A DNA stretch of 64,000 bases from positions 31,187-95,186 of IMG/VR virus record IMGVR_UViG_3300047564_001181; one strand, 5' to 3'. Origin of the DNA: a virus. Numbering within the stretch: position 1 is the first letter of the stretch; each line of letters opens with the position of its first letter. Positions 2,411-31,349 of the stretch are shown here, piece by piece. The position numbers and the translations under genes are program-made. The notes beneath the pieces were generated by a model that was not told the origin of the DNA, did no database searches, and worked only from the letters and a program-made list of their open reading frames with translations.

Positions 2411-2699
2411 TCTGTACCGCTGCTAAAATTTCTTCCCATATTTCTTGTGTTTTATGTGCATTGCGAGATTTGCTTATTTCTCCATCAACAAAATACACAC
2501 CGCCAAATACGCCGTTAGCCCGATAAGGCTCTTGCATTTGGGTAGCATACTCAAAGCAGTCTTTAATGACTGGGCAATGTAAGCATACTGTTGTGTCAAT
2601 TGTAAGTGCAAGCTTTGGGTCTTCTTCATATTTTTCAAAAAATAAGTTAACATCTAGACCTGCACATTTAGCTTTTTTTCTCCACTCATCATCGAACAT
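2397..2699 (-). CDS. whiB: WhiB-family Fe-S transcription factor
   Basis: W...A.C ... C-x2-C-x5-C and GVFGG turn. Start moved to MFDDEW (2699) to avoid a long overlap. Confidence 0.9.
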   Translation of the reverse strand: MFDDEWRKKAKCAGLDVNLFFEKYEEDPKLALTIDTTVCLHCPVIKDCFEYATQMQEPYRANGVFGGVYFVDGEISKSRNAHKTQEIWEEILAAVQSEEA

Positions 2700-2910: not shown

Positions 2911-3279
2911 TTAGTATTTATAAATTGCTGTTTTAACGCCGAATCCATCTGCTTTATGAATCAGAGAATCCCAGGACATAATGATATCATCTTTGTTGGC
3001 AAATAACAAGACCTCGTTGATATCATGTTTTTCAAAGTTGCTCATAATATCATTATACGCAACCTTAGAAAACTTAATTTTAATTTTCTTTTGCTTAAAA
3101 TACTGTTGAGTTTTATTACAAAACTCCGCAGTAAAACTATTAACCTTGTACGGACCAGCAGTGAGCAATTCAACTGTTTTAGTTGCATCATTTATTTGAC
3201 TATCAATTGCTACTACTATTCCACGCATGAATGTATTATAGTCATCAAACTTATGACTACCATAAACAAGAATTTTCAC
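2911..3279 (-). CDS. hypothetical protein, possibly SLOG/YspA-like
   Basis: N-terminus 'KILVYGSHKFDDY' resembles the SLOG-family 'lv.GsR.f.Dy' start; remainder weak. Confidence 0.5.
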   Translation of the reverse strand: MKILVYGSHKFDDYNTFMRGIVVAIDSQINDATKTVELLTAGPYKVNSFTAEFCNKTQQYFKQKKIKIKFSKVAYNDIMSNFEKHDINEVLLFANKDDIIMSWDSLIHKADGFGVKTAIYKY

Positions 3280-3304
3280 TTTCTTACCTTTCGATTAGGT
3301 ATAA

Positions 3305-3333
3305 ATTATATCAATTTATAATGATATTGTCAA
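3305..3333 (-). promoter_or_regulatory. sigma70/SigA-type promoter
   Basis: TTGACA-N17-TATAAT, perfect consensus, upstream of 2911..3279. Confidence 0.85.
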
Positions 3334-3509
3334 GGGGTTTCTGGTGCTGACCATACACCATCAATTAAAATCCAGCCGATATTCATACCTTCTGGAGAAG
3401 ATTCATATTCAATTGCAGATAAACCTGTAACTTCTTCTGCAATTTCTTTTGTATCAGCTAGGATGAAGTTCACAATTTGTGAGCCATTAGAAATAAAATA
3501 ACTAGGCAT
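3330..3509 (-). CDS. small protein following Gly-rich adhesin (59 aa)
   Basis: Manual ORF MPSYFISNGSQIVNFILAD...IGWILIDGVWSAPETP; TAATG coupling to the upstream gene. Confidence 0.65.
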   Translation of the reverse strand: MPSYFISNGSQIVNFILADTKEIAEEVTGLSAIEYESSPEGMNIGWILIDGVWSAPETP

Positions 3510-4405
3510 TATACATCTCCTGTGTTAGTAGAAGGATATGCTCTACCAGAACCCCAAATAATTCTAACAGCTCCAGATGCTCCACCTAAAGCACCAGTTG
3601 AAGGGGCAGAATTGTCATCAATAGCACCGCCACCTCCGCCATAGAGACCTCCTCTACCAGAAGTAGTAACAGTCCCACCAAGAGTTCCACTATCACCACC
3701 AGAACCACCTCCGCCACCATTTGCAGTAGTTCCACTTCCAGTGCCAGCAGTTCCAGCAGTTCCTCCAAGACCAGACGAGCCTTCTCCTAAAAGACCGACA
3801 CCACCGCCGCCTCCTGAATCTGCTCCATCTGAACCACCTCCGCCAGCTCCGCCGCCAGAACCAGGGTCTCCATTTACTCCAGTAGTTGATGGTGAAACTC
3901 TACCATTTCCACCATTACCAGAATATCCACCAGCACCTCCACCACCTCCTGGGTTAGTTGTGTCAGCTTCAGAACCGCCACCATTTCCACCACCTATAGT
4001 GCCACCAACAGAAGAGCCAGTTCCACCAGAAATAGTTCCAGAACCAGAGGTTCCTCCAGTTCCGCCACCTGCAGTTAGTAATGGTGTGCCTCCTCTGGAT
4101 ATTGAAGAATCCCCACCAGATGTTGCAACAGAAACGGCTCTTACTCCGCCAGCACCAACAGTAACACTTAAAGATTCTCCAGGAGTTACAGATAAAGATG
4201 TTATATATCTAAGACCTCCACCGCCACCGCCTTTTGCACCTCCAGTGTTATAAACTCCACCTCCACCACCACCTACACATACTGCAGAAATAGATGTTAC
4301 GCCTGTTGGTACAGTAAATGTTCCAGATGTTGTAAATACTTGCTGACCTGATGGACCGCCACCAGACTCAAAGTAGCTAGATGAAATTGTTCCAATAATT
4401 GGCAT
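3509..4405 (-). CDS. glycine-rich tail-tip/adhesin-like protein
   Basis: 'FTTSGTFTVPTGVTSISAVCVGGGGGG' ... 'GASGAVRIIW' Gly-rich domain; start set at MPIIG (TAATG coupling). Confidence 0.75.
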   Translation of the reverse strand: MPIIGTISSSYFESGGGPSGQQVFTTSGTFTVPTGVTSISAVCVGGGGGGVYNTGGAKGGGGGGLRYITSLSVTPGESLSVTVGAGGVRAVSVATSGGDSSISRGGTPLLTAGGGTGGTSGSGTISGGTGSSVGGTIGGGNGGGSEADTTNPGGGGGAGGYSGNGGNGRVSPSTTGVNGDPGSGGGAGGGGSDGADSGGGGGVGLLGEGSSGLGGTAGTAGTGSGTTANGGGGGSGGDSGTLGGTVTTSGRGGLYGGGGGAIDDNSAPSTGALGGASGAVRIIWGSGRAYPSTNTGDV

Positions 4406-5520
4406 TATGCACTCAAATCTCCGAGTAGTAGCCATGAATCAGTTCCGATTTTAACAAGAGTGGCAGATGAATATGCGGCTCTAAAGTTTTTTCCTGGGGT
4501 TGCGTTAACAGTAACACCTACAGATTGTGTAACAGACGCACCAGTAGTTAATGCTACAAGGTTAATCTGTGTGCCAATTGGATATGGAACTACTGAGTTA
4601 AGTGGAACAGTAAAAGCAAAAGCACCGTTCATCTGAACTAAAGTATTTGCATCTGCTGCAGCCAATGTATACGCACCAGTTTTAGCAGTTGTGTTAACTC
4701 TAAATGTTGGAACCAATGTAAGGTTTGTGCCGTCTCCAATATATCCATGATGATATGTTGTATCCCAAGCTATTCTACCGTCAGATGTGCTTGAGGTTGT
4801 GCTTAAAGTTAAAGTTGGGGTAGTAATAGTTGGAGAAGAACCTGTAATATATGCACCACTAACAGCAATTGTAATTGTGTCTGTGCTTGCATCTCCAGTA
4901 ACAGAAATACCAGTTCCACCAGACAATGTTAATGTATCTGTAGAACTCTCTGCCTCAACATTGCTTCCAGAAGAAGGAACAATAATGGTAAATGAGTTTC
5001 CAGAGCCACCAGCACCTGTTGCATCACTTCCATTTATCCAGTTCGTTCCATCATATTTTAATACTTGACCAGAAGCAAGTGTGCCAGATGTGATAACAAC
5101 ATCTGAAAGATTGTCTAAAGTATGAGTGTGAGAAGTTGTAGAATATGATGCAGTGTCTAATTCCCAAGTATCTGCTGCAGTCTTTTTAAGAAAGCCAGAT
5201 GTTCCTGCTAATGCTTCAATTGCTTGAAGGTCTGCACCAGCAGAAAATGTCATTCTCTGATTTCCTTCATCCCATGAAATAACTAATCCAGAGCCTTGTC
5301 TAAACTCAATTGTATCGGTAACAGAATCGCTACCTATTAGTTGTAAGTCAGCACCGCTGGCATTAGTTGCACCTTCTAGATGGTATGTTGTATTAGCGTC
5401 TGTTAATGAATAACTATCAAGTTCTGTATCAATAGCTTCTGCTAGAGCTTGAAAATCCGCAGGAATATTTGGATTGTCAGAACTCGATGGGTACGGAAAC
5501 CCTTTAGTTGTTGTTGGCAT
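4405..5520 (-). CDS. tail fibre-like structural protein
   Basis: 'GFPYPSSSD.PNIPAD.QALA..ID' N-terminus typical of actinophage fibre proteins; Ser/Thr-rich; C-terminal domain shared with 7200..9128. Confidence 0.7.
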   Translation of the reverse strand: MPTTTKGFPYPSSSDNPNIPADFQALAEAIDTELDSYSLTDANTTYHLEGATNASGADLQLIGSDSVTDTIEFRQGSGLVISWDEGNQRMTFSAGADLQAIEALAGTSGFLKKTAADTWELDTASYSTTSHTHTLDNLSDVVITSGTLASGQVLKYDGTNWINGSDATGAGGSGNSFTIIVPSSGSNVEAESSTDTLTLSGGTGISVTGDASTDTITIAVSGAYITGSSPTITTPTLTLSTTSSTSDGRIAWDTTYHHGYIGDGTNLTLVPTFRVNTTAKTGAYTLAAADANTLVQMNGAFAFTVPLNSVVPYPIGTQINLVALTTGASVTQSVGVTVNATPGKNFRAAYSSATLVKIGTDSWLLLGDLSA

Positions 5521-5550
5521 TACTTCTCCTTTTCACCTAATTATACCTTA

Positions 5551-5859
5551 TTATACTACCCGATTCAAGATATACTCGTGATATCCCTGTTCTCCATATA
5601 GGTCAGGAGACCAACCATAATAAATCTCTGGATTCATTTCTTCATCTGGTAGTTGATAATATACTTGATTTACTGAATCCCAGTGCCAACCAAGTCCTGG
5701 CATATATCCTAGATTACAGCAACATTCTACTTTATCTCCTTGCATCATCAATAATAAGTCTTGAAATATTGAGTCATCATGTTCATTAAATGTTCCAGTC
5801 CAAACAACAATGCCATTTTTAATAATAGCGTGTGGGTGACTATCTAAATGCTCTATCAT
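5551..5859 (-). CDS. small protein following Gly-rich adhesin
   Basis: ATGA-coupled to 5856..7187; 'PGLGWHWD' resembles 'IGWIL.DG.W' of 3330..3509. Confidence 0.6.
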   Translation of the reverse strand: MIEHLDSHPHAIIKNGIVVWTGTFNEHDDSIFQDLLLMMQGDKVECCCNLGYMPGLGWHWDSVNQVYYQLPDEEMNPEIYYGWSPDLYGEQGYHEYILNRVV

Positions 5860-7187
5860 ACAGGATACCTCACAATTACCATTCCGCTACCTCCAGTTCC
5901 TCCAGTTCCAGAACTTGAGTTCAATCCAGCACCACCGTTTCCAGTATTTGATGTTCCAGAACCACCTCCAGAGATACTGCCACCAACACCAATTGTTCCA
6001 ACCGTTGTACCAGCAGCCCGATACCAAGTCGTATATGATGAACCAGTTGAGCCAATAGTTCCAGCAGCAATACCTGCACCACCACCAGCACCAGCACCAC
6101 CAGTTGTACCATTACCACCATTACCGCCCTGAGAACCAGTTCCACCACTTACTGTTCCTCCAGAGCTAGCACCAGCACCACCACCACAAGAGCCATTACC
6201 ACCTGCAGTAAAGTAGATTGCACCATAGCCTCCACCAGTTCTAGATGAACCATTAAATGAAGATGTTGAGCCAGCACTTCCGTTAACACCAGCACCACCA
6301 GAACCTCCATTGCCAACCACTACAGTATAGTTTCCAGCAGTTAAGGTTGTAGCGGCAACTGTGATAGAGTCGCTAGCCCCACCACCACCTCCACCACCAC
6401 CTGAACCAGTAGACCTAGCTCCTCCGCCTCCACCGCCAACTATTAGTGCTTCAACATTTGTTTGTGAAGCACCACTGACTGAAAGAGTTCCTCCGTTTGT
6501 AAACACATGATATTTGTATGAACCTTGTGTAAATGTTGAGTTTCCACCAGTAACTGTTGCAACAGGATTTGGTGTCACGGAAGCAGTTGCCGTAGATGCT
6601 GTTCCAGTTCCATTGGCATTAATTGCTGCAAGGGTAAATGTGTATGCAGTATTAGCTGTAAATGTACCAGTTACAGAAATAGGACTTGTAACATCAGTGC
6701 CACTGTAAGATAGCGATATCGATGGACTAGATACAATGTTATATCCAGTAATAGTTTTACCACCTGTATTTGGTGCTCCTGTCCAGGCAACGCTAACTGT
6801 TGTTGAGTTTGTTACAGTTGCAGTAACGCCAGTAGGAGCAGATGGTGTAGATGTAATTAAAACTGAAGATGAAGCAGAAGATGTTCCACTATTTCCAATT
6901 GCATTTGTAGCTCTAACTGTAAAAGTATGGTTTGTTCCAGATGGTGATGTGTCAAGACCTGTTACTGTTGTTGGTGACCCATTTAAATCACTCTGAGAAC
7001 CGCCTGGAGAACCTGTAACTAAATAAGAACTTATTGGAAGTTTTCCATCGAATGGTTCTGTGTATGTTACGGTTGCAGAACCGTTGTCGTATGCTCTATT
7101 TGTTCCAACATCTGTTGCAGATGGAGCAGCTGGTGTATTTGGAACTGTTCTAGTTGAAGAAGGAACTGCTACTACTGGTAAAACCAT
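5856..7187 (-). CDS. fibronectin type III + glycine-rich tail-tip protein
   Basis: Two FN3-like repeats ('FTVRATNAIG', 'YTFTLAAINANG') followed by a Gly-rich domain ending 'GGSGMVIVRYP'. Confidence 0.8.
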   Translation of the reverse strand: MVLPVVAVPSSTRTVPNTPAAPSATDVGTNRAYDNGSATVTYTEPFDGKLPISSYLVTGSPGGSQSDLNGSPTTVTGLDTSPSGTNHTFTVRATNAIGNSGTSSASSSVLITSTPSAPTGVTATVTNSTTVSVAWTGAPNTGGKTITGYNIVSSPSISLSYSGTDVTSPISVTGTFTANTAYTFTLAAINANGTGTASTATASVTPNPVATVTGGNSTFTQGSYKYHVFTNGGTLSVSGASQTNVEALIVGGGGGGARSTGSGGGGGGGGASDSITVAATTLTAGNYTVVVGNGGSGGAGVNGSAGSTSSFNGSSRTGGGYGAIYFTAGGNGSCGGGAGASSGGTVSGGTGSQGGNGGNGTTGGAGAGGGAGIAAGTIGSTGSSYTTWYRAAGTTVGTIGVGGSISGGGSGTSNTGNGGAGLNSSSGTGGTGGSGMVIVRYPV

Positions 7188-10514: not shown

Positions 10515-10799
10515 TCACAAGTCGAGGTCTTTTGCGAGAGCATATTTAGGCTTAGCACCTACGATTTGCTTCAAAACTTGACCATTTTCAACGACCATGA
10601 TTACAGGGATTGAAGAAATACCAAATTCTGTGGCTAGGTCTTGTTGTTCATCCACATTAATCTTAATTAATTCTATATTTGATTCGTCTGCAAGCTCTTG
10701 TAGAACTGGACCTACCATTTTGCATGGTCCACACCACTCAGCCCAGAAATCAACAATTGCTTTACCTTTAATTCCATCAAGGAATTCTTGCTTACTCAT
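10515..10799 (-). CDS. trxA: thioredoxin
   Basis: 'VDFWAEWCGPCK' active site and 'SIP'; GGAGGA RBS before MSKQ. Confidence 0.95.
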   Translation of the reverse strand: MSKQEFLDGIKGKAIVDFWAEWCGPCKMVGPVLQELADESNIELIKINVDEQQDLATEFGISSIPVIMVVENGQVLKQIVGAKPKYALAKDLDL

Positions 10800-10817
10800 A
10801 CTTCCTCCAAGTTTAGT

Positions 10818-10962
10818 GAAAGGGTAGACTAGCAAAATATCCAACTGCACACAATAGCGTAACGGAATTCAGCCTTTTACGCTGTCGCTTATGTCCATAG
10901 ACTCTAGCGAATGTCGGGATATCGGATTGTAACTACACCATCCTAAGATTGTCTACCCTTTC
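10818..10962 (-). ncRNA. putative structured non-coding RNA (unknown family)
   Basis: 12-bp perfect terminal stem GAAAGGGTAGAC/GTCTACCCTTTC plus several internal stems; begins 1 nt after tRNA-Asn. Confidence 0.6.
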
Positions 10963-10963
10963 G

Positions 10964-11035
10964 CTGGAATGATAGGATTCGAACCTATAGCCCGCCGATT
11001 AACAGTCGGCTGCTCTGCCATTGAGCTACACTCCA
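10964..11035 (-). tRNA. tRNA-Asn (GTT)
   Basis: Cloverleaf TGGAGTG/CATTCCA; anticodon arm GCCGA-CTGTTAA-TCGGC; T-loop TTCGAAT; CCA not encoded. Confidence 0.95.
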
Positions 11036-11040
11036 AAAGT

Positions 11041-11202
11041 GGATAGGTGGATTGCTTTTTACCACCACGGATAAGCCAGCAATACATCTAAGTACCGCTT
11101 TCATCCGACCAGACCTTTGTTCCGCTAAGAACAGAGACGCTAATCTCAGACCTGTGCTTTACTCTCCCCTTGCTGGCAAAGAGATTCGTTCAGCCATATC
11201 CC
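11041..11202 (-). ncRNA. structured RNA resembling a minimal GOLLD 3' domain
   Basis: Terminal GGATA/TATCC stem, GCCAGCAA/TTGCTGGC stem, twin UUAGCG-loop hairpins; motifs AUAUGGCUGAA, GCGGUACUUAG and GGUGG...AAUCCACC recalled from GOLLD RNA; flanked by tRNAs. Confidence 0.6.
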
Positions 11203-11227
11203 AAATTCTTCGTCAAGAATTTGTTTG

Positions 11228-11299
11228 AGCCTTCTATCCGATTTGAACGGATGACCCTCGCATTACAAGTGCGATGCTCTACCACTGAGCTAAGAAGGC
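11228..11299 (-). tRNA. tRNA-Thr (TGT)
   Basis: GCCTTCT/AGAAGGC acceptor; TCGCA-CTTGTAA-TGCGA; TTCAAAT T-loop. Confidence 0.95.
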
Positions 11300-11314: not shown

Positions 11315-11343
11315 AATATACCCTATGGAGAACGATTTGTCAA
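11315..11343 (-). promoter_or_regulatory. sigma70-type promoter for tRNA-Thr/ncRNA/tRNA-Asn/ncRNA/trxA unit
   Basis: TTGACA-N17-TATATT. Confidence 0.75.
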
Positions 11344-11346
11344 GAG

Positions 11347-12141
11347 TTACTTGACTTTATTTGCAAGTTTTTTAAACTCTGCGAATGTCTTTGGACCAAC
11401 TACAGCATCAGCAGTTCCAAACTTTGGATTTGCTTTTTGCCAAGCAACTACTGCTTTTCTAGTTACAGGACCATACTGACCATCTACTGCTTTACCAGTA
11501 AATCCAAGAGCCTTCTGAATAACCTTAATGTATTCTCCAACCTCGCCTGGCTGAATTGGGTCATTTGGATATGCTGCTGGGTCATGTGGCTTTTCAGCCT
11601 TTGGCTTAATTGCCTTTACTGGACCTGGGAACTTAGGACGACCAAAGCCAACAATGCTGACCTGAACGCCCTTCTTGTTCTTTTTGTATCCACGAATCTT
11701 CTTTAGAACCATACCACCATTTCTTTGGTCTCCAGTAACACCAGCAGTGTTACCTTCAACAGTAGTTACGGTTCCATCGCCATTGTCTTTAATAACAATA
11801 CCGACATGAGAAATCCTCTCAACGCCATCTCCAGGAAAATTGAAATAAGCGACATCTCCTGGTTGTGGCTTTGCATCATCTGCATCAGACCATGCTTTTG
11901 CCTTTTCAAATGCTGCTGCACCGTTAGGAGTATAGATTGTTGCTTTATCTCCAGGAAGTTTAAATCCTGCCTGATTTGCACACCAAATTACGAATGAACC
12001 ACACCATGCAACAAAGTTAGCACCAGTGAATGCACCGTATTTAGTTTGATTATCTTTTGGACCTTCAACAACGCCGACTTCTTTGAGAGCAACCTCAACA
12101 AATTTTTCGGCAGTGCCAAGTTCCGCTGGTTTCTTAGCCAT
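11347..12141 (-). CDS. endolysin (CHAP domain + peptidoglycan-binding domain)
   Basis: 'WCGSFV', 'HVGIV', 'TVEGNT' CHAP residues; C-terminal 'IQKALG...DGQYGPVT..AV..WQ...D.VVGPKT' PG-binding repeat. Start set at MAKK after GAGG. Confidence 0.9.
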   Translation of the reverse strand: MAKKPAELGTAEKFVEVALKEVGVVEGPKDNQTKYGAFTGANFVAWCGSFVIWCANQAGFKLPGDKATIYTPNGAAAFEKAKAWSDADDAKPQPGDVAYFNFPGDGVERISHVGIVIKDNGDGTVTTVEGNTAGVTGDQRNGGMVLKKIRGYKKNKKGVQVSIVGFGRPKFPGPVKAIKPKAEKPHDPAAYPNDPIQPGEVGEYIKVIQKALGFTGKAVDGQYGPVTRKAVVAWQKANPKFGTADAVVGPKTFAEFKKLANKVK

Positions 12142-12186
12142 ATATTTTTTACCTCTTCTAATTAGATTTGATAGCTTGGCTATCAG

Positions 12187-12259
12187 CACCCTATACGAGA
12201 TTCGAACTCGTGGTCTCTTCCGTGAGAGGGAAGCGTCCTTACCGCTAGACCAATAGGGC
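12187..12259 (-). tRNA. tRNA-Glu (CTC)
   Basis: GCCCTAT/ATAGGGT acceptor; CTTCC-CTCTCAC-GGAAG; TTCGAAT T-loop. Confidence 0.93.
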
Positions 12260-12283
12260 TTGGATATAGATTATATCATTTAG

Positions 12284-12541
12284 TGGAGCATATGGGAATT
12301 GAACCCATGTCCAAATAGTTTCTGTCTAAACGGAATTACAGCAATTTGTTTTTATTACGGTTTGTTTTTTCTTTTTGTTTTGCAACTTTCTGTTCCCAAG
12401 GAGTTGCCCCTCGGCACTGCTATGCAGCTAGTGCGAGAGCGTTTTGTGTTACGCCGTTTATTATTTTGTGTCGTTTTAGAAGTCTACACAACTTCTGCTG
12501 CCGTGTTAGATTTCGGCTATCTGTCGAAACCTGTATGCCCC
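12284..12541 (-). ncRNA. ssrA: tmRNA, short form (258 nt)
   Basis: 5' GGGGCAT..GGTTTCGAC and 3' GGACATGGGTTCAATTCCCATATGCTCCA (Ala-type G3:U acceptor); tag ORF GVTQNALALAA* at 12455-12420 after AATAAAC. Confidence 0.93.
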
Positions 12542-12542
12542 G

Positions 12543-12614
12543 CACCCCTGGCAGGATTCGAACCTGCGACCAATAGCTTAGAAGGCTACTGCTCTTCCAC
12601 TGAGCTACAGAGGT
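12543..12614 (-). tRNA. tRNA-Arg (TCT)
   Basis: ACCTCTG/CAGGGGT acceptor; GTAGC-CTTCTAA-GCTAT; TTCGAAT T-loop. Confidence 0.95.
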
Positions 12615-12620
12615 ATTCTA

Positions 12621-12854
12621 TTAATTCGATGCTGGGGAAGGCTTTGAATTAATAAACTCTCTATCGTCAATGATTTCAAATGCATATTCACGAATCTTTG
12701 CTTCGTGTTTGCTAAAGTGATGACCACAAAAATATAGGTCTCCAGTAATTCCATTTACCCATACAAATGCTTCAGCACTGCATGAGTCGCATCTGTCAGA
12801 TGTTTTGGTCTGTCTCTGCTTAACTTCTTCTGTTTCTACTATTTCTGTTGTCAT
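12621..12854 (-). CDS. small Zn-finger protein of a type seen in actinobacteria
   Basis: 'DRCDSC...LYFCGHH..KHE' motif. Confidence 0.7.
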   Translation of the reverse strand: MTTEIVETEEVKQRQTKTSDRCDSCSAEAFVWVNGITGDLYFCGHHFSKHEAKIREYAFEIIDDREFINSKPSPASN

Positions 12855-13951: not shown

Positions 13952-15736
13952 CTAAATCATTCCAATATTAATTAAATAATCTTTCATGTTATCTGGCATA
14001 GTTCTTTTAGGTGCATAAATAACATTATTTTCTTCTTGCTCTAACCTATCTTGTCTACCAAGAGAAGCGTAGGTATGAATTTCAATCTCTCTCAACCCCG
14101 TGTTCTTGGGAGTTCCAGAGATTGCATTATATATAGAACCACACACAGCATCTGAAAGGTCTTTAGAACCTTTGCGTGGATGGTCTACTTTATCTCTAAG
14201 TATACGCAATTGTACCAATTCTTCTTTAAGTAAGTCAATAGAAGGACCGATAATTCTTTCTTCTGATACCAACATTTTCATATCTTCATAGTGCTTTTTA
14301 GCAACGGAAAGGGTCTCAGTATTGATTCCATATGCTCTAAGTTCATTCATAATATCAAATGAATTCCATCGGTCAAAGGTTACTTTCTTTAACTTGAATC
14401 CACGATTTCTTAGTTCAAGGACATAGTTTTTAACATCTGTAAAGTTAACTGCTTTATCTGCTGTTGGTGTCCACCATCTAACAGCATCAACTACAACAAC
14501 TGGAACTACAATATCTACATCGTTAATTGTATGTGTCTTTACCCATTTCTCAACATGTGCAAGAGATACCGCACAGTGGTCGTGTTTTTGTGCAAGGTCA
14601 ACATGTACAAAATAAACCTTATCTTCATCTGGGGTAAACCATTCTGCAAACTGCCCTTTGTCATCTACCGCAAATTGATTTTGATTGAAGCAAATATCAA
14701 TCTTTTCCCTTGAAGGGAAGAATGCATCTACTGCATCTGGTGGCATACAGGCAAAGCGAGATAAAGCGTCTGTAGGGTTTGTTAAAAACTGAATCTTAAA
14801 GTCTGTAATCTTACGAGTAGGGTTAACCTCCCATGTAGGTCTACGCAAAGCAAATACTTTTGGAACCTTGTAAGAAGTAATGTGGTCTTCTTCCCAGTGG
14901 ATACTAAACCTATTCATTTCATCAAAGACATCTCCGTCTTCATCTATTACAAACTCATGCTCTCTAACTACAACATCTTTATCTGCAACAACGGCATTGT
15001 ATCTTTGCTGAATATAGTCATTCTTATATCGGGGAAATGAAAGAAGAATTAGCTTACCAAAGTCTGGGAAACGAGAGTCTACAGATGCACGATACATATC
15101 ATAGATTGCACCTGCTGTTTTAGCTTGGTCATGCCCTGATGTACTGTCAATGGCAAAGCCAGAAATCTCATCGAGAATTACGCAGATAACATTGTAACCT
15201 TCAAATGCTTCTCTTTCTGAGTGACCAGAATAGCAATTTACATACTTGTCAAACTCAATAACATTTTGTTTTGGATTGTATTTTCCAGCAAACCATGGAC
15301 AGTTATCAATACGCTTTTTAAAGTTATCGAAGAATACCCGCTTTGCTTGGTCAGCGTTGATAGCGATGTTGATGATATCAATTGAGTCTCCTGGTGGCTT
15401 TCCAAAGTATTTTGCAGGGTCTTTTAGGCACAGTAATAAATACACAATATAAGCAACAGCAATTGTTGACATATAGTCCTTACCAGAACCCTTGCCTAAT
15501 TGAAGAATTACCTCGTTCATCGTCTGTTTCCAGCGTTTTAATCCAGCTTCTTCTCCATAAAGATGGATTAATGTTTCTTTTTTATAAATCTGAGACATAG
15601 CACGAATAGCCGTATATTGATGTTCTGATAGTGGTGGTAGTCCAAGGTATTCTTTACTGGTTACAAACTCTTCAATAGTTACTGGTCTCTCTTCAAAATC
15701 CTCGCCACCGAGCATATCCAGAATGTCATCAAACAT
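13952..15736 (-). CDS. terminase large subunit
   Basis: Walker A-like 'LGKGSGKD', Walker B 'VILDE', nuclease 'HVDLA..HD' and 'DHP..GSKD..DA'. Confidence 0.92.
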   Translation of the reverse strand: MFDDILDMLGGEDFEERPVTIEEFVTSKEYLGLPPLSEHQYTAIRAMSQIYKKETLIHLYGEEAGLKRWKQTMNEVILQLGKGSGKDYMSTIAVAYIVYLLLCLKDPAKYFGKPPGDSIDIINIAINADQAKRVFFDNFKKRIDNCPWFAGKYNPKQNVIEFDKYVNCYSGHSEREAFEGYNVICVILDEISGFAIDSTSGHDQAKTAGAIYDMYRASVDSRFPDFGKLILLSFPRYKNDYIQQRYNAVVADKDVVVREHEFVIDEDGDVFDEMNRFSIHWEEDHITSYKVPKVFALRRPTWEVNPTRKITDFKIQFLTNPTDALSRFACMPPDAVDAFFPSREKIDICFNQNQFAVDDKGQFAEWFTPDEDKVYFVHVDLAQKHDHCAVSLAHVEKWVKTHTINDVDIVVPVVVVDAVRWWTPTADKAVNFTDVKNYVLELRNRGFKLKKVTFDRWNSFDIMNELRAYGINTETLSVAKKHYEDMKMLVSEERIIGPSIDLLKEELVQLRILRDKVDHPRKGSKDLSDAVCGSIYNAISGTPKNTGLREIEIHTYASLGRQDRLEQEENNVIYAPKRTMPDNMKDYLINIGMI

Positions 15737-30863: not shown

Positions 30864-31349
30864 CTAAGCTGCTTTTTTTGCTCTTAATCTACATATTTTA
30901 GAGCAGTACTTATAATGCTTTTCTGCGTGTATAGGTACAGAGTACGAATTGTAGCAGAACAAACATTCTTTTTCAACCATTTTTTGCAATCTACATTGTG
31001 AATTGCACTTTTTCTTACGCTTTACAATATGTGGTGGTCCAAAGAACTCTCTCCCACATGTACTACAAAGCCTACTAATCCATTTAGGATGTAATTTTGT
31101 AAAGGATACATTCCTCATATTATGAGCTTTATCGTGTTCCCTGCGAGAACAGACAAATAAGTTTTCAATTCTATTGTCATTCTTTATTTCATTAATATGA
31201 TGAACTGTTTCCCAGTCTTTTAGAGGTCTACCCAGATGTGATTCAGCGGTTAGTATGTGTTCAAAATACCAACCGCCAAAAGCCTTGGGATGCTTGGATG
31301 GAACCAAGACATACCCATTTAAATATCTATACGATAGCTCTCTTTCCAA
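30864..31349 (-). CDS. HNH endonuclease with C-terminal Zn fingers
   Basis: 'EH....E..LGR.L...E.VHHIN..K.DNRIENL......H...H'. Confidence 0.88.
   Translation of the reverse strand: MERELSYRYLNGYVLVPSKHPKAFGGWYFEHILTAESHLGRPLKDWETVHHINEIKNDNRIENLFVCSRREHDKAHNMRNVSFTKLHPKWISRLCSTCGREFFGPPHIVKRKKKCNSQCRLQKMVEKECLFCYNSYSVPIHAEKHYKYCSKICRLRAKKAA

Follow-up and report, generated by a model that had tools for sequence, protein, structure and literature searches.

A small structured RNA of a previously uncatalogued family in the tRNA operons of uncultured phages

Positions 10818-10962 on the minus strand of a 64,000-nucleotide (nt) stretch of viral DNA (positions 31,187 to 95,186 of the IMG/VR record IMGVR_UViG_3300047564_001181; hereafter the window) encode a folded RNA of 145 nt, element X, that is evolutionarily maintained and belongs to a family not previously catalogued. 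The element lies between a gene for transfer RNA (tRNA)-Asn and a thioredoxin gene (trx), and its relatives in other uncultured phages come in two natural circular permutations. The reading that we favour, with a confidence a little above even, is that X is a small structured RNA (79-145 nt across the family), carried as an optional cassette of tRNA operons, that would be released by tRNA processing and would act in trans through a conserved core. The element had first been singled out from the letters of the window alone, as an unassigned multi-stem RNA fused to the 3' end of tRNA-Asn (the original prediction), and on inspection the sequence agrees with that description.

The minimum free energy fold of X has an energy of -48 kcal/mol, as compared with -32.9 ± 3.6 kcal/mol for dinucleotide shuffles (n = 200, z = -4.23), and not one of the 200 shuffles folded as well. 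This fold contains a perfect helix of 12 base pairs (bp), P1, in which the 5' strand GAAAGGGUAGAC (10951-10962) pairs with the 3' strand GUCUACCCUUUC (10818-10829), the latter being followed by the tail ACUA; it also contains a GGAU..AUCC hairpin and a GAUAUCC/GGAUAUU helix. At the inner end of the P1 clamp lies a nearly invariant 19-mer, CUUAGGAUGGUGUAGUUAC (10929-10947), whose GGAU (10940-10943) pairs with AUCC at 10924-10927 to form P2, a pairing that leaves a 12-nt loop, GGUGUAGUUACA. The GAUAUCC/GGAUAUU helix, P3 (10917-10923 with 10836-10842, spanning 10836-10923), encloses the hairpins P4 (10885-10910) and P5 (10856-10883), as well as a conserved GUGCAG block (10845-10850) that reads YGUGC in nearly all members of the family. 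The inner hairpins UCGCU/AGCGA and AGCGUAA/UUACGCU are backed by the consensus fold of four close relatives, and a covariance model matches X over its full length (156.5 bits) together with the relatives L002/L003, L004 and L005. The minimum free energy and consensus folds thus bear out the architecture that had been drawn for these 145 nt, namely a 12-bp terminal helix with further helices inside it.

The family comprises about 45 distinct sequences on about 90 uncultured phage and metagenome contigs. Its first members were collected through endolysin similarity; a scan of IMG/VR with a conserved 17-mer gave 63 contigs, and one with the 19-mer gave 28 metagenome contigs. A scan with the first 14 bases alone returned many chance matches inside open reading frames (ORFs), and all matches that adjoined a tRNA carried the full 19-mer. 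Two loci, L208 and L212, were left out as chance occurrences of the 19-mer inside an ORF, with neither a helix nor a tRNA. An alignment-free helix search that used the motif as its anchor yielded 42 distinct elements, which are either of the standard permutation (types A, B and C, 108-145 nt; the X of the window is of type A) or of the permuted form (type P, 79-103 nt). The exact 19-mer has no match in 185,579 prokaryote genomes, and blastn searches with types A, B and C found no true match among 50,697 GenBank phage records. That the family was not recognised at the outset is in keeping with Rfam 15 (4227 models), in which neither the window nor representatives of all subtypes have a match over X, be it at the gathering score or at E <= 10; the matches found in the same searches are limited to tRNAs, transfer-messenger RNA (tmRNA) and manA. 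A full-text literature search for the motif matched only two papers, both on human genetics and unrelated.

The helix that closes the element is maintained by pairing and not by sequence. A perfect P1 of 12-15 bp is present in 42 of 42 distinct members, and the same helix finder, when applied to shuffled flanks, produced a helix of that length (at least 12 bp) in 22 of 2100 trials (1%). In a model-fitted alignment of 28 distinct standard-type sequences, 98% of the P1 cells are paired and each of the 12 pairs has changed in a compensatory manner, a single position showing as many as five pair types; the whole standard structure is 89% paired, versus 34-44% in controls in which the partner strand was slid. 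L002 has GAGGGUGGCGGAU/AUCCGUCACCCUC in place of GAAAGGGUAGAC/GUCUACCCUUUC, and double changes are seen at eight pairs already when just four sequences are compared. The P1 of the permuted type is 100% paired and compensatory at 7 of 13 pairs (MAFFT-only alignment, 14 members). Conservation and covariation in related phages, the lack of which would have spoken against a functional RNA, are thus found in both types. Both-sided changes also occur at 5 of 7 pairs of the P3-equivalent helix, and the inner hairpins are subtype-specific. The pattern of wobble pairs further identifies the strand: a full-length P1 is obtained in 42 of 42 members when G-U is allowed, in 26 with Watson-Crick pairs alone and in 27 when A-C is allowed, such that G-U is needed in 16 members and A-C, the wobble of the opposite strand, rescues one. 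Because wobble is tolerated only as G-U, P1 is selected in the RNA of the tRNA-sense strand.

In contrast to P1, the 19-mer is conserved as sequence. It is found in all family members, the variants seen being A4G, G12A and one triple change, and it is therefore nearly, but not absolutely, invariant. The carriers have in common a terminase whose amino-acid identity between subtypes is 60-70%, and blastn no longer recognises the remainder of X; that the 19-mer is kept over this distance indicates strong selection on its sequence. Among 80 terminase relatives that were sampled without regard to the motif, X is present in six, all bona fide permuted elements, and of these one has the exact motif, three have A4G, one has G12A and one has three changes (GGUUAUGUUAC). 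A covarying partner of the 19-mer was sought using three motif variants, which hold too little variation to reveal one.

How the core is built becomes apparent from the two permutations. Standard members are composed of the P1 5' strand, 0-5 nt, CUUAGGAUGGUGUAGUUAC, a variable domain that ends in YGUGC...GGAU(U/A)U, and the P1 3' strand. Permuted members begin with the P1 5' strand, A-AUYY, a hairpin such as UUUUCAGUAC-GUCAUU-GUGCAGAAAA and 2-9 nt, and end with CUUAGGAUGGUGUAGUUAC, 1-2 nt and the P1 3' strand. P1 opens next to CUUA in one permutation and after UUAC in the other. In types A and B, the motif's GGAU finds its AUCC partner immediately downstream, and GGUGUAGUUACN is left as a 12-nt loop; the permuted form has its AUYY partner on the upstream side of the motif, and those 12 nt there form a one-sided internal loop beside P1. 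The permuted P2 partners are AUCC, AUUC, AUCU and AUUU, in which U or C faces G, so that wobble preserves the pair. Common to both forms is that the AUYY strand continues straight into the next helix and that the 19-mer adjoins the inner end of P1, and in permuted members the YGUGC block is located 2-9 nt upstream of the 19-mer. This shared arrangement indicates one common core that has been opened at two places, with P1 as a movable clamp outside of it. L229, a member with an entirely unrelated P1 of 15 bp, carries GUGCAG on the opposite side of its hairpin.

Some further features of the core region were noted. Standard members have a second GGAU a few nt past YGUGC (10836-10850 in the window), whereas the GGAU found at that distance from YGUGC in permuted members is the 19-mer's own; the second copy looks like a remnant of a tandem duplication that was later truncated, which is how circular permutations usually arise. 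By eye, the long permuted members L124, L203, L216 and L253 could form an H-type pseudoknot, in which UUUGA..CGCA upstream of a CCAGUAU/GUGCAGG hairpin would face UGCG-UCAAA in the loop of that hairpin. Antisense targeting was considered and rejected: twelve-mers with up to two mismatches to the motif complement number 18 in the window versus 3.7 expected from shuffles, a fivefold excess, but this enrichment was judged to be probably a composition artefact, as it consists mostly of GAT-GGT-GTA (Asp-Gly-Val) in minus-strand ORFs, and dinucleotide shuffles ignore codon usage. A mini-ORF within the motif, AUG-GUG-UAG, has no suitably spaced Shine-Dalgarno (SD) sequence and was likewise rejected. 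Two pairings suggested by inspection are kept as leads and not as claims, GGAU being paired in the model. AGGA(U)GGUG might pair with the 3' tail of 16S ribosomal RNA over 8 bp with one bulge, in mimicry of an SD sequence, and UGGU might pair in a T-box-like manner to an NCCA end.

Contact with tRNA genes is the second constant of the family, as 39 of the 42 distinct members adjoin one with a gap of 0-4 nt. Twenty-five of 28 standard members start 0-2 nt past a tRNA (Asn, Gly, Ile-UAU or Met), and 13 of the 28 also have a tRNA 1-4 nt downstream; in 11 of 14 permuted members, tRNA-Gln, Pro or Asn follows at 3-4 nt. In the window, the gene for tRNA-Asn(GUU) (10963-11035, minus strand, no encoded CCA) ends by Rfam coordinates at its discriminator G (10964), leaving a single C (10963) before P1, and the join between tRNA-Arg (12543-12614) and tmRNA (end 12541) has the same spacing, as had been pointed out in the original prediction. 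At its other end, at 10818, the X helix is followed 9 nt further on by the trx SD, UGGAGGAAGU-AUG, a distance that had been put at about 10 nt. The tails past P1 are short, and include CCA, CUA, UCA, UUA, ACCA, ACUU and ACUA.

The downstream neighbour is variable. The order is tRNA-Asn, X, trx in L002/L003; tRNA-Asn, X, tRNA-Leu, trx in L004; and tRNA-Gly, X, tRNA-Asn, trx in L005, so that X directly precedes trx in just two of the four type-A sequence variants. The next genes other than tRNAs are trx in type A and a lysin-like ORF in type C, and a tRNA is found on both sides of all 11 distinct type-B members, which have tRNA-Pro next, as well as of L004 and L005. With trx, a lysin-like ORF, and tRNA-Leu, Asn, Pro or Gln all found downstream, X is not tied to trx in cis. 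Of the two possibilities raised at the outset, the variable neighbour that is expected of an RNA acting in trans is what is seen, and a structured leader of trxA can be dismissed as its general role.

How X might be made and used can be outlined from these features. A promoter-like site at 11315-11343 on the minus strand, sigma-70-like (TTGACA-17-TATATT) and matching 11 of 12 consensus positions, a consensus match alone, precedes tRNA-Thr(UGU) (11227-11299), which opens the unit, and no terminator-like site was found on the minus strand from there to trx. X would be transcribed from this promoter (11343-11315) together with tRNA-Thr, manA, tRNA-Asn and trx. P1 would serve as the handle by which host RNase Z and RNase P cut X from its neighbours at the base of the helix, and would afterwards shield both ends of the RNA. 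RNase P, RNase Z and the CCA-adding enzyme measure their substrates by the stack of acceptor and T stems; P1, at 12-15 bp, has the length of this stack and is followed by a short CCA-like tail, and it is from this length, the tail and the joins of 0-4 nt to tRNAs that cutting at P1 is proposed. The compact core at the inner end of P1, formed by CUUAGGAUGGUGUAGUUAC and the YGUGC block, would then bind a conserved partner, which might be a protein, from the host or from the phage, or an RNA belonging to the tRNA and translation machinery. As the core outlasts both permutation and change of neighbours, its function is likely to be self-contained, be it the binding of a protein, an RNA or a ligand, or catalysis; a role as a putative protein decoy is possible.

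Several observations weigh against this proposal. X is optional, with 74 of 80 terminase-relative loci lacking it within 4.5 kilobases (kb) of the terminase gene, and its function is therefore dispensable; syntenic relatives have an unrelated promoter-like spacer at the site of the permuted X. Permuted members start about 4 nt past the stop codon of a conserved ORF and not past a tRNA, and L229 is placed between two ORFs with no tRNA nearby, so that tRNA processing cannot be the sole route to the ends of X. Moreover, P2 differs in type C, where CUUA/UAAG apparently replaces GGAU/AUCC, and the secondary structure shared beyond P1 is only partly resolved across subtypes. Finally, a simple clamp helix would also suit protection of messenger RNA (mRNA) ends in cis.

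This last possibility takes X to be an end-protecting element or insulator, whose clamp, once the tRNAs have been excised, stays on the mRNA as a 5' cap (of trx, or of the type-C lysin-like ORF) or as a 3' cap (of the ORF upstream of permuted members) and shields it from RNase J, RNase E or 3' exonucleases. We regard it as unlikely, although it carries some weight: X is located at a tRNA/mRNA boundary in the window, in L002 and in all type-C and permuted members, it is separated from trx by no terminator, with the SD 9 nt past P1, and the position of L229 between ORFs suits this role. The type-B members, L004 and L005, being flanked by tRNAs on both sides, offer no mRNA end to protect, and a plain hairpin would suffice for the purpose, which leaves the 19-mer, YGUGC and a core that withstands permutation without explanation. 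Placement before trx has also invited the narrower view that X is a structured 5' leader or riboswitch of that gene, with which it would be co-transcribed and whose SD it precedes by 9-13 nt in the window and L002/L003. This is barely credible given that tRNA-Leu (L004) or tRNA-Asn (L005) comes between X and trx, that types B, C and P have other neighbours, and that P1 closes before the SD, no alternative pairing that would sequester the SD having been seen. A role at the level of DNA, as a site of packaging or recombination close to the terminase gene or as a miniature inverted-repeat mobile element whose terminal repeats imitate an RNA helix, would account for the constant location, some 0.1-3 kb past the gene for the large terminase, the terminal inverted repeat of 12-15 bp, the presence/absence polymorphism at syntenic sites and the invariant 19-bp core. 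It is nevertheless very improbable, as a site for a transposase or terminase would be conserved in sequence and the family has at least 12 unrelated P1 sequences that compensate; wobble is tolerated on the tRNA-sense strand only, the orientation is always that of the tRNAs at a spacing of 0-4 nt, and target-site duplications were not noticed in the flanks that were read. A transposon end of the miniature inverted-repeat kind was rejected for the same reason, its inverted repeats not being conserved in sequence.

The remaining alternatives concern what X does as an RNA. Natural circular permutation is a hallmark of the hammerhead and twister ribozymes, and X could by analogy be a small self-cleaving ribozyme of a new kind, or a catalytic RNA of some other sort, that serves in maturing the tRNA operon. 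Such an activity would fit the compact core, whose unpaired nucleotides are nearly invariant, the direct contact with tRNAs, the natural permutation and the precedent of the tRNA-associated theta ribozymes of phages (PMC10879173). We nonetheless consider it improbable: no known Rfam ribozyme family matches even at E <= 10, an HDV-like (hepatitis delta virus-like) topology is excluded by the covarying pairing of the 5' with the 3' end, the tRNA junction is placed differently with respect to the core in the two permutations, so that one cleavage site could not serve both, and the RNase P and RNase Z of the host are enough to deal with spacers of 0-4 nt. A self-assembling scaffold or cage RNA like manA, or like the tRNA-associated phage RNAs GOLLD and ROOL, has if anything a slightly slimmer chance. 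A manA RNA lies in the same operon, RNA-only cages and oligomers have been reported for RNAs of less than 200 nt including manA (preprint 10.64898/2026.07.01.735769), and the invariant, exposed 12-nt loop of X could be an intermolecular contact; on the other hand, the argument is pure analogy, X has no similarity to the manA, GOLLD or ROOL models, and there is no self-complementary conserved loop, as the palindrome GAAUUC in the P5 loop of the window is not kept in L002, L004 or L005. More far-reaching, and rather doubtful, is the idea that X represents a new functional class of RNA, prompted by a core that withstands permutation and is always set off from the putatively processed ends by exactly the length of one acceptor-plus-T stack (12-15 bp). 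It might be a catalytic RNA of small size, or might imitate the tRNA "elbow" and so dock on a host factor that recognises tRNAs. Targets of an elbow mimic might be RNase P, RNase Z, the CCA-adding enzyme or a tRNA-targeting defence nuclease, and such a mimic, if real, would give the phage a means of steering or protecting tRNA metabolism while infecting freshwater Actinobacteria.

In the window, X is part of an RNA-rich block on the minus strand that runs in the order tRNA-Arg, tmRNA, tRNA-Glu, endolysin, tRNA-Thr, manA, tRNA-Asn, X and thioredoxin. The tRNA-Arg gene (12542-12614) is directly followed by the gene for a tmRNA of 259 nt (12283-12541) with the tag GVTQNALALAA; as for X, an ACUA-type sequence and not an encoded CCA follows this phage tmRNA, and none of the tRNAs of the window encodes CCA. 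L002/L003 have no tmRNA between tRNA-Arg and tRNA-Glu. The endolysin gene, of the CHAP/peptidoglycan-binding kind, occupies 11347-12189, and trx occupies 10515-10799 (Pfam PF00085, E = 3.7e-26; ATG at 10799-10797), with its SD GGAGGA at 10803-10808, 9 nt past X. The tRNA and non-coding RNA content of the lysin region is reshuffled among phages whose lysins are 85-93% identical: L004 has 11 tRNA genes around the lysin (3115-6175), and the window has four and the tmRNA. Further upstream are the genes for a DUF7455 protein of 77 amino acids (12621-12854, minus strand) and for the large terminase of 594 amino acids (13952-15736, minus strand), which has weak PHROG similarity and more than 514 relatives in IMG/VR. 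The terminase clade is large and mostly freshwater, and the terminase gene is directly followed in it by tRNA arrays that vary. The DUF7455 protein recurs within 2 kb of X on the same strand in types A, B and P (20 related loci), and is the sole recurrent small protein near X; it was considered as a conserved neighbouring RNA-binding protein and set aside, having no known RNA-binding role or domain.

The RNA at 11036-11220 on the minus strand, which had been labelled "GOLLD-like", is better read as manA (RF01745, 82.4 bits versus a gathering score of 55.2). It is full-length, is spaced 0-6 nt from the flanking tRNA-Thr and tRNA-Asn, and does not lie in a 5' untranslated region; it is retained in L002/L003 (55.9 bits) and lost in L004 and L005. 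Although manA has been catalogued as a cis-regulatory candidate (PMC2864571), its placement between two tRNAs argues against such a role here, and bears on the question of whether manA truly is a cis-regulator.

The host of this phage, as far as it can be judged from sequence, is probably a freshwater actinobacterium. The phage record, of 95 kb and estimated to be 87% complete, contains two WhiB-family genes (window 2496-2684, minus strand, and G000:C1:13212-13370, outside the window), and together with the DUF7455 protein, the CHAP/peptidoglycan-binding lysin, a major capsid protein 42% identical to those of 130-kb Streptomyces phages, a G+C content of about 40-45%, and the origin of the family contigs mainly from lakes, they point to such a host. 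The carriers of X are abundant uncultured freshwater phages, probably of Actinobacteria. Actinobacterial hosts are not known to have Hfq, ProQ or CsrA, and RNA-based manipulation of these hosts would therefore be new ground. The minimal permuted X is short enough for direct biochemical tests, and the family is a ready candidate for a new Rfam entry.

Comparison with known RNAs places X outside of the families that it superficially resembles. A tRNA or tRNA-like identity was rejected, as ARAGORN and RF00005 call the flanking tRNAs and not X, which has no arm of the GGUUCGAAUCC type; by inspection, GUG-UA-GUUA of X loosely resembles a tRNA 5' strand followed by U8-A9 and the D-stem. The Y RNAs are similar to X in size (80-130 nt), in having a long end-to-end stem and in their large internal loops. 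YrlA is encoded beside Ro60/Rsr and has T-arm-like and D-arm-like stem-loops and a GNCGAAN0-1G motif, and some Y RNAs are substrates of RNase P or CCA addition, and some are phage-encoded (PMC4201824). A TROVE gene (PF05731) was not found in the 95-kb phage record, and X has no T-arm, no Rfam match and no GNCGAAN0-1G in conserved positions. 6S RNA, of about 180 nt, consists of one long, irregular helix that is opened by a large bubble at its centre; X differs in being a multi-helix junction or bulged hairpin of 79-145 nt with no central bubble, and has no match to RF00013 or any other Rfam model. Of the original suggestion of a novel phage non-coding RNA, what stands is a conserved structured RNA in tRNA operons, outside of Rfam; a Y-like RNA, a 6S-like RNA and a trxA leader find no support.

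Structured RNAs of phages offer closer company. manA, which lies 73 nt upstream of X, and the larger GOLLD and ROOL are structured phage RNAs like X, which matches none of their models even at E <= 10; manA is reported to form a 60-mer cage (preprint 10.64898/2026.07.01.735769). The HDV-like theta ribozymes of gut phages are found within about 5 nt of tRNA genes and have been proposed to process tRNA 3' trailers (PMC10879173). They form the nested double pseudoknot of HDV and cleave at their 5' end, whereas the ends of X pair with each other; X has no HDV-like Rfam match, and its permuted form is upstream and not downstream of the tRNA.

Extra stable RNAs have long been known in phage tRNA clusters, their function never having been explained, and rnaC and rnaD of phage T4, which are co-processed with the tRNAs, are the classic case. 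They are also closest to X in layout, being non-tRNA RNAs of similar size inside a phage tRNA operon: rnaD (species 2, 119 nt) begins 1 nt past tRNA-Arg and rnaC (species 1, 139 nt) 6 nt later (NC_000866), and X, at 145 nt and 1 nt past tRNA-Asn, takes the position typical of these RNAs. The likeness does not extend to sequence or fold. The covariance model of X (R1), run with filters off, gave only noise on rnaC and rnaD (at most 3.3 bits), and the folds differ; rnaC has a tRNA-like T-arm, GGGUUCGAAUCCC, that X does not, neither T4 RNA has the perfect 12-bp clamp or the 19-mer, and host phylum and phage lineage are different. X stands for a real and well-supported family, which is kin in kind, and not by homology, to the unexplained small stable RNAs of phage tRNA operons. 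To these it adds a clean case, which is small (79 nt in its minimal form), has very strong covariation and a nearly invariant 19-nt element, and comes in two natural circular permutations that pin down its functional core.

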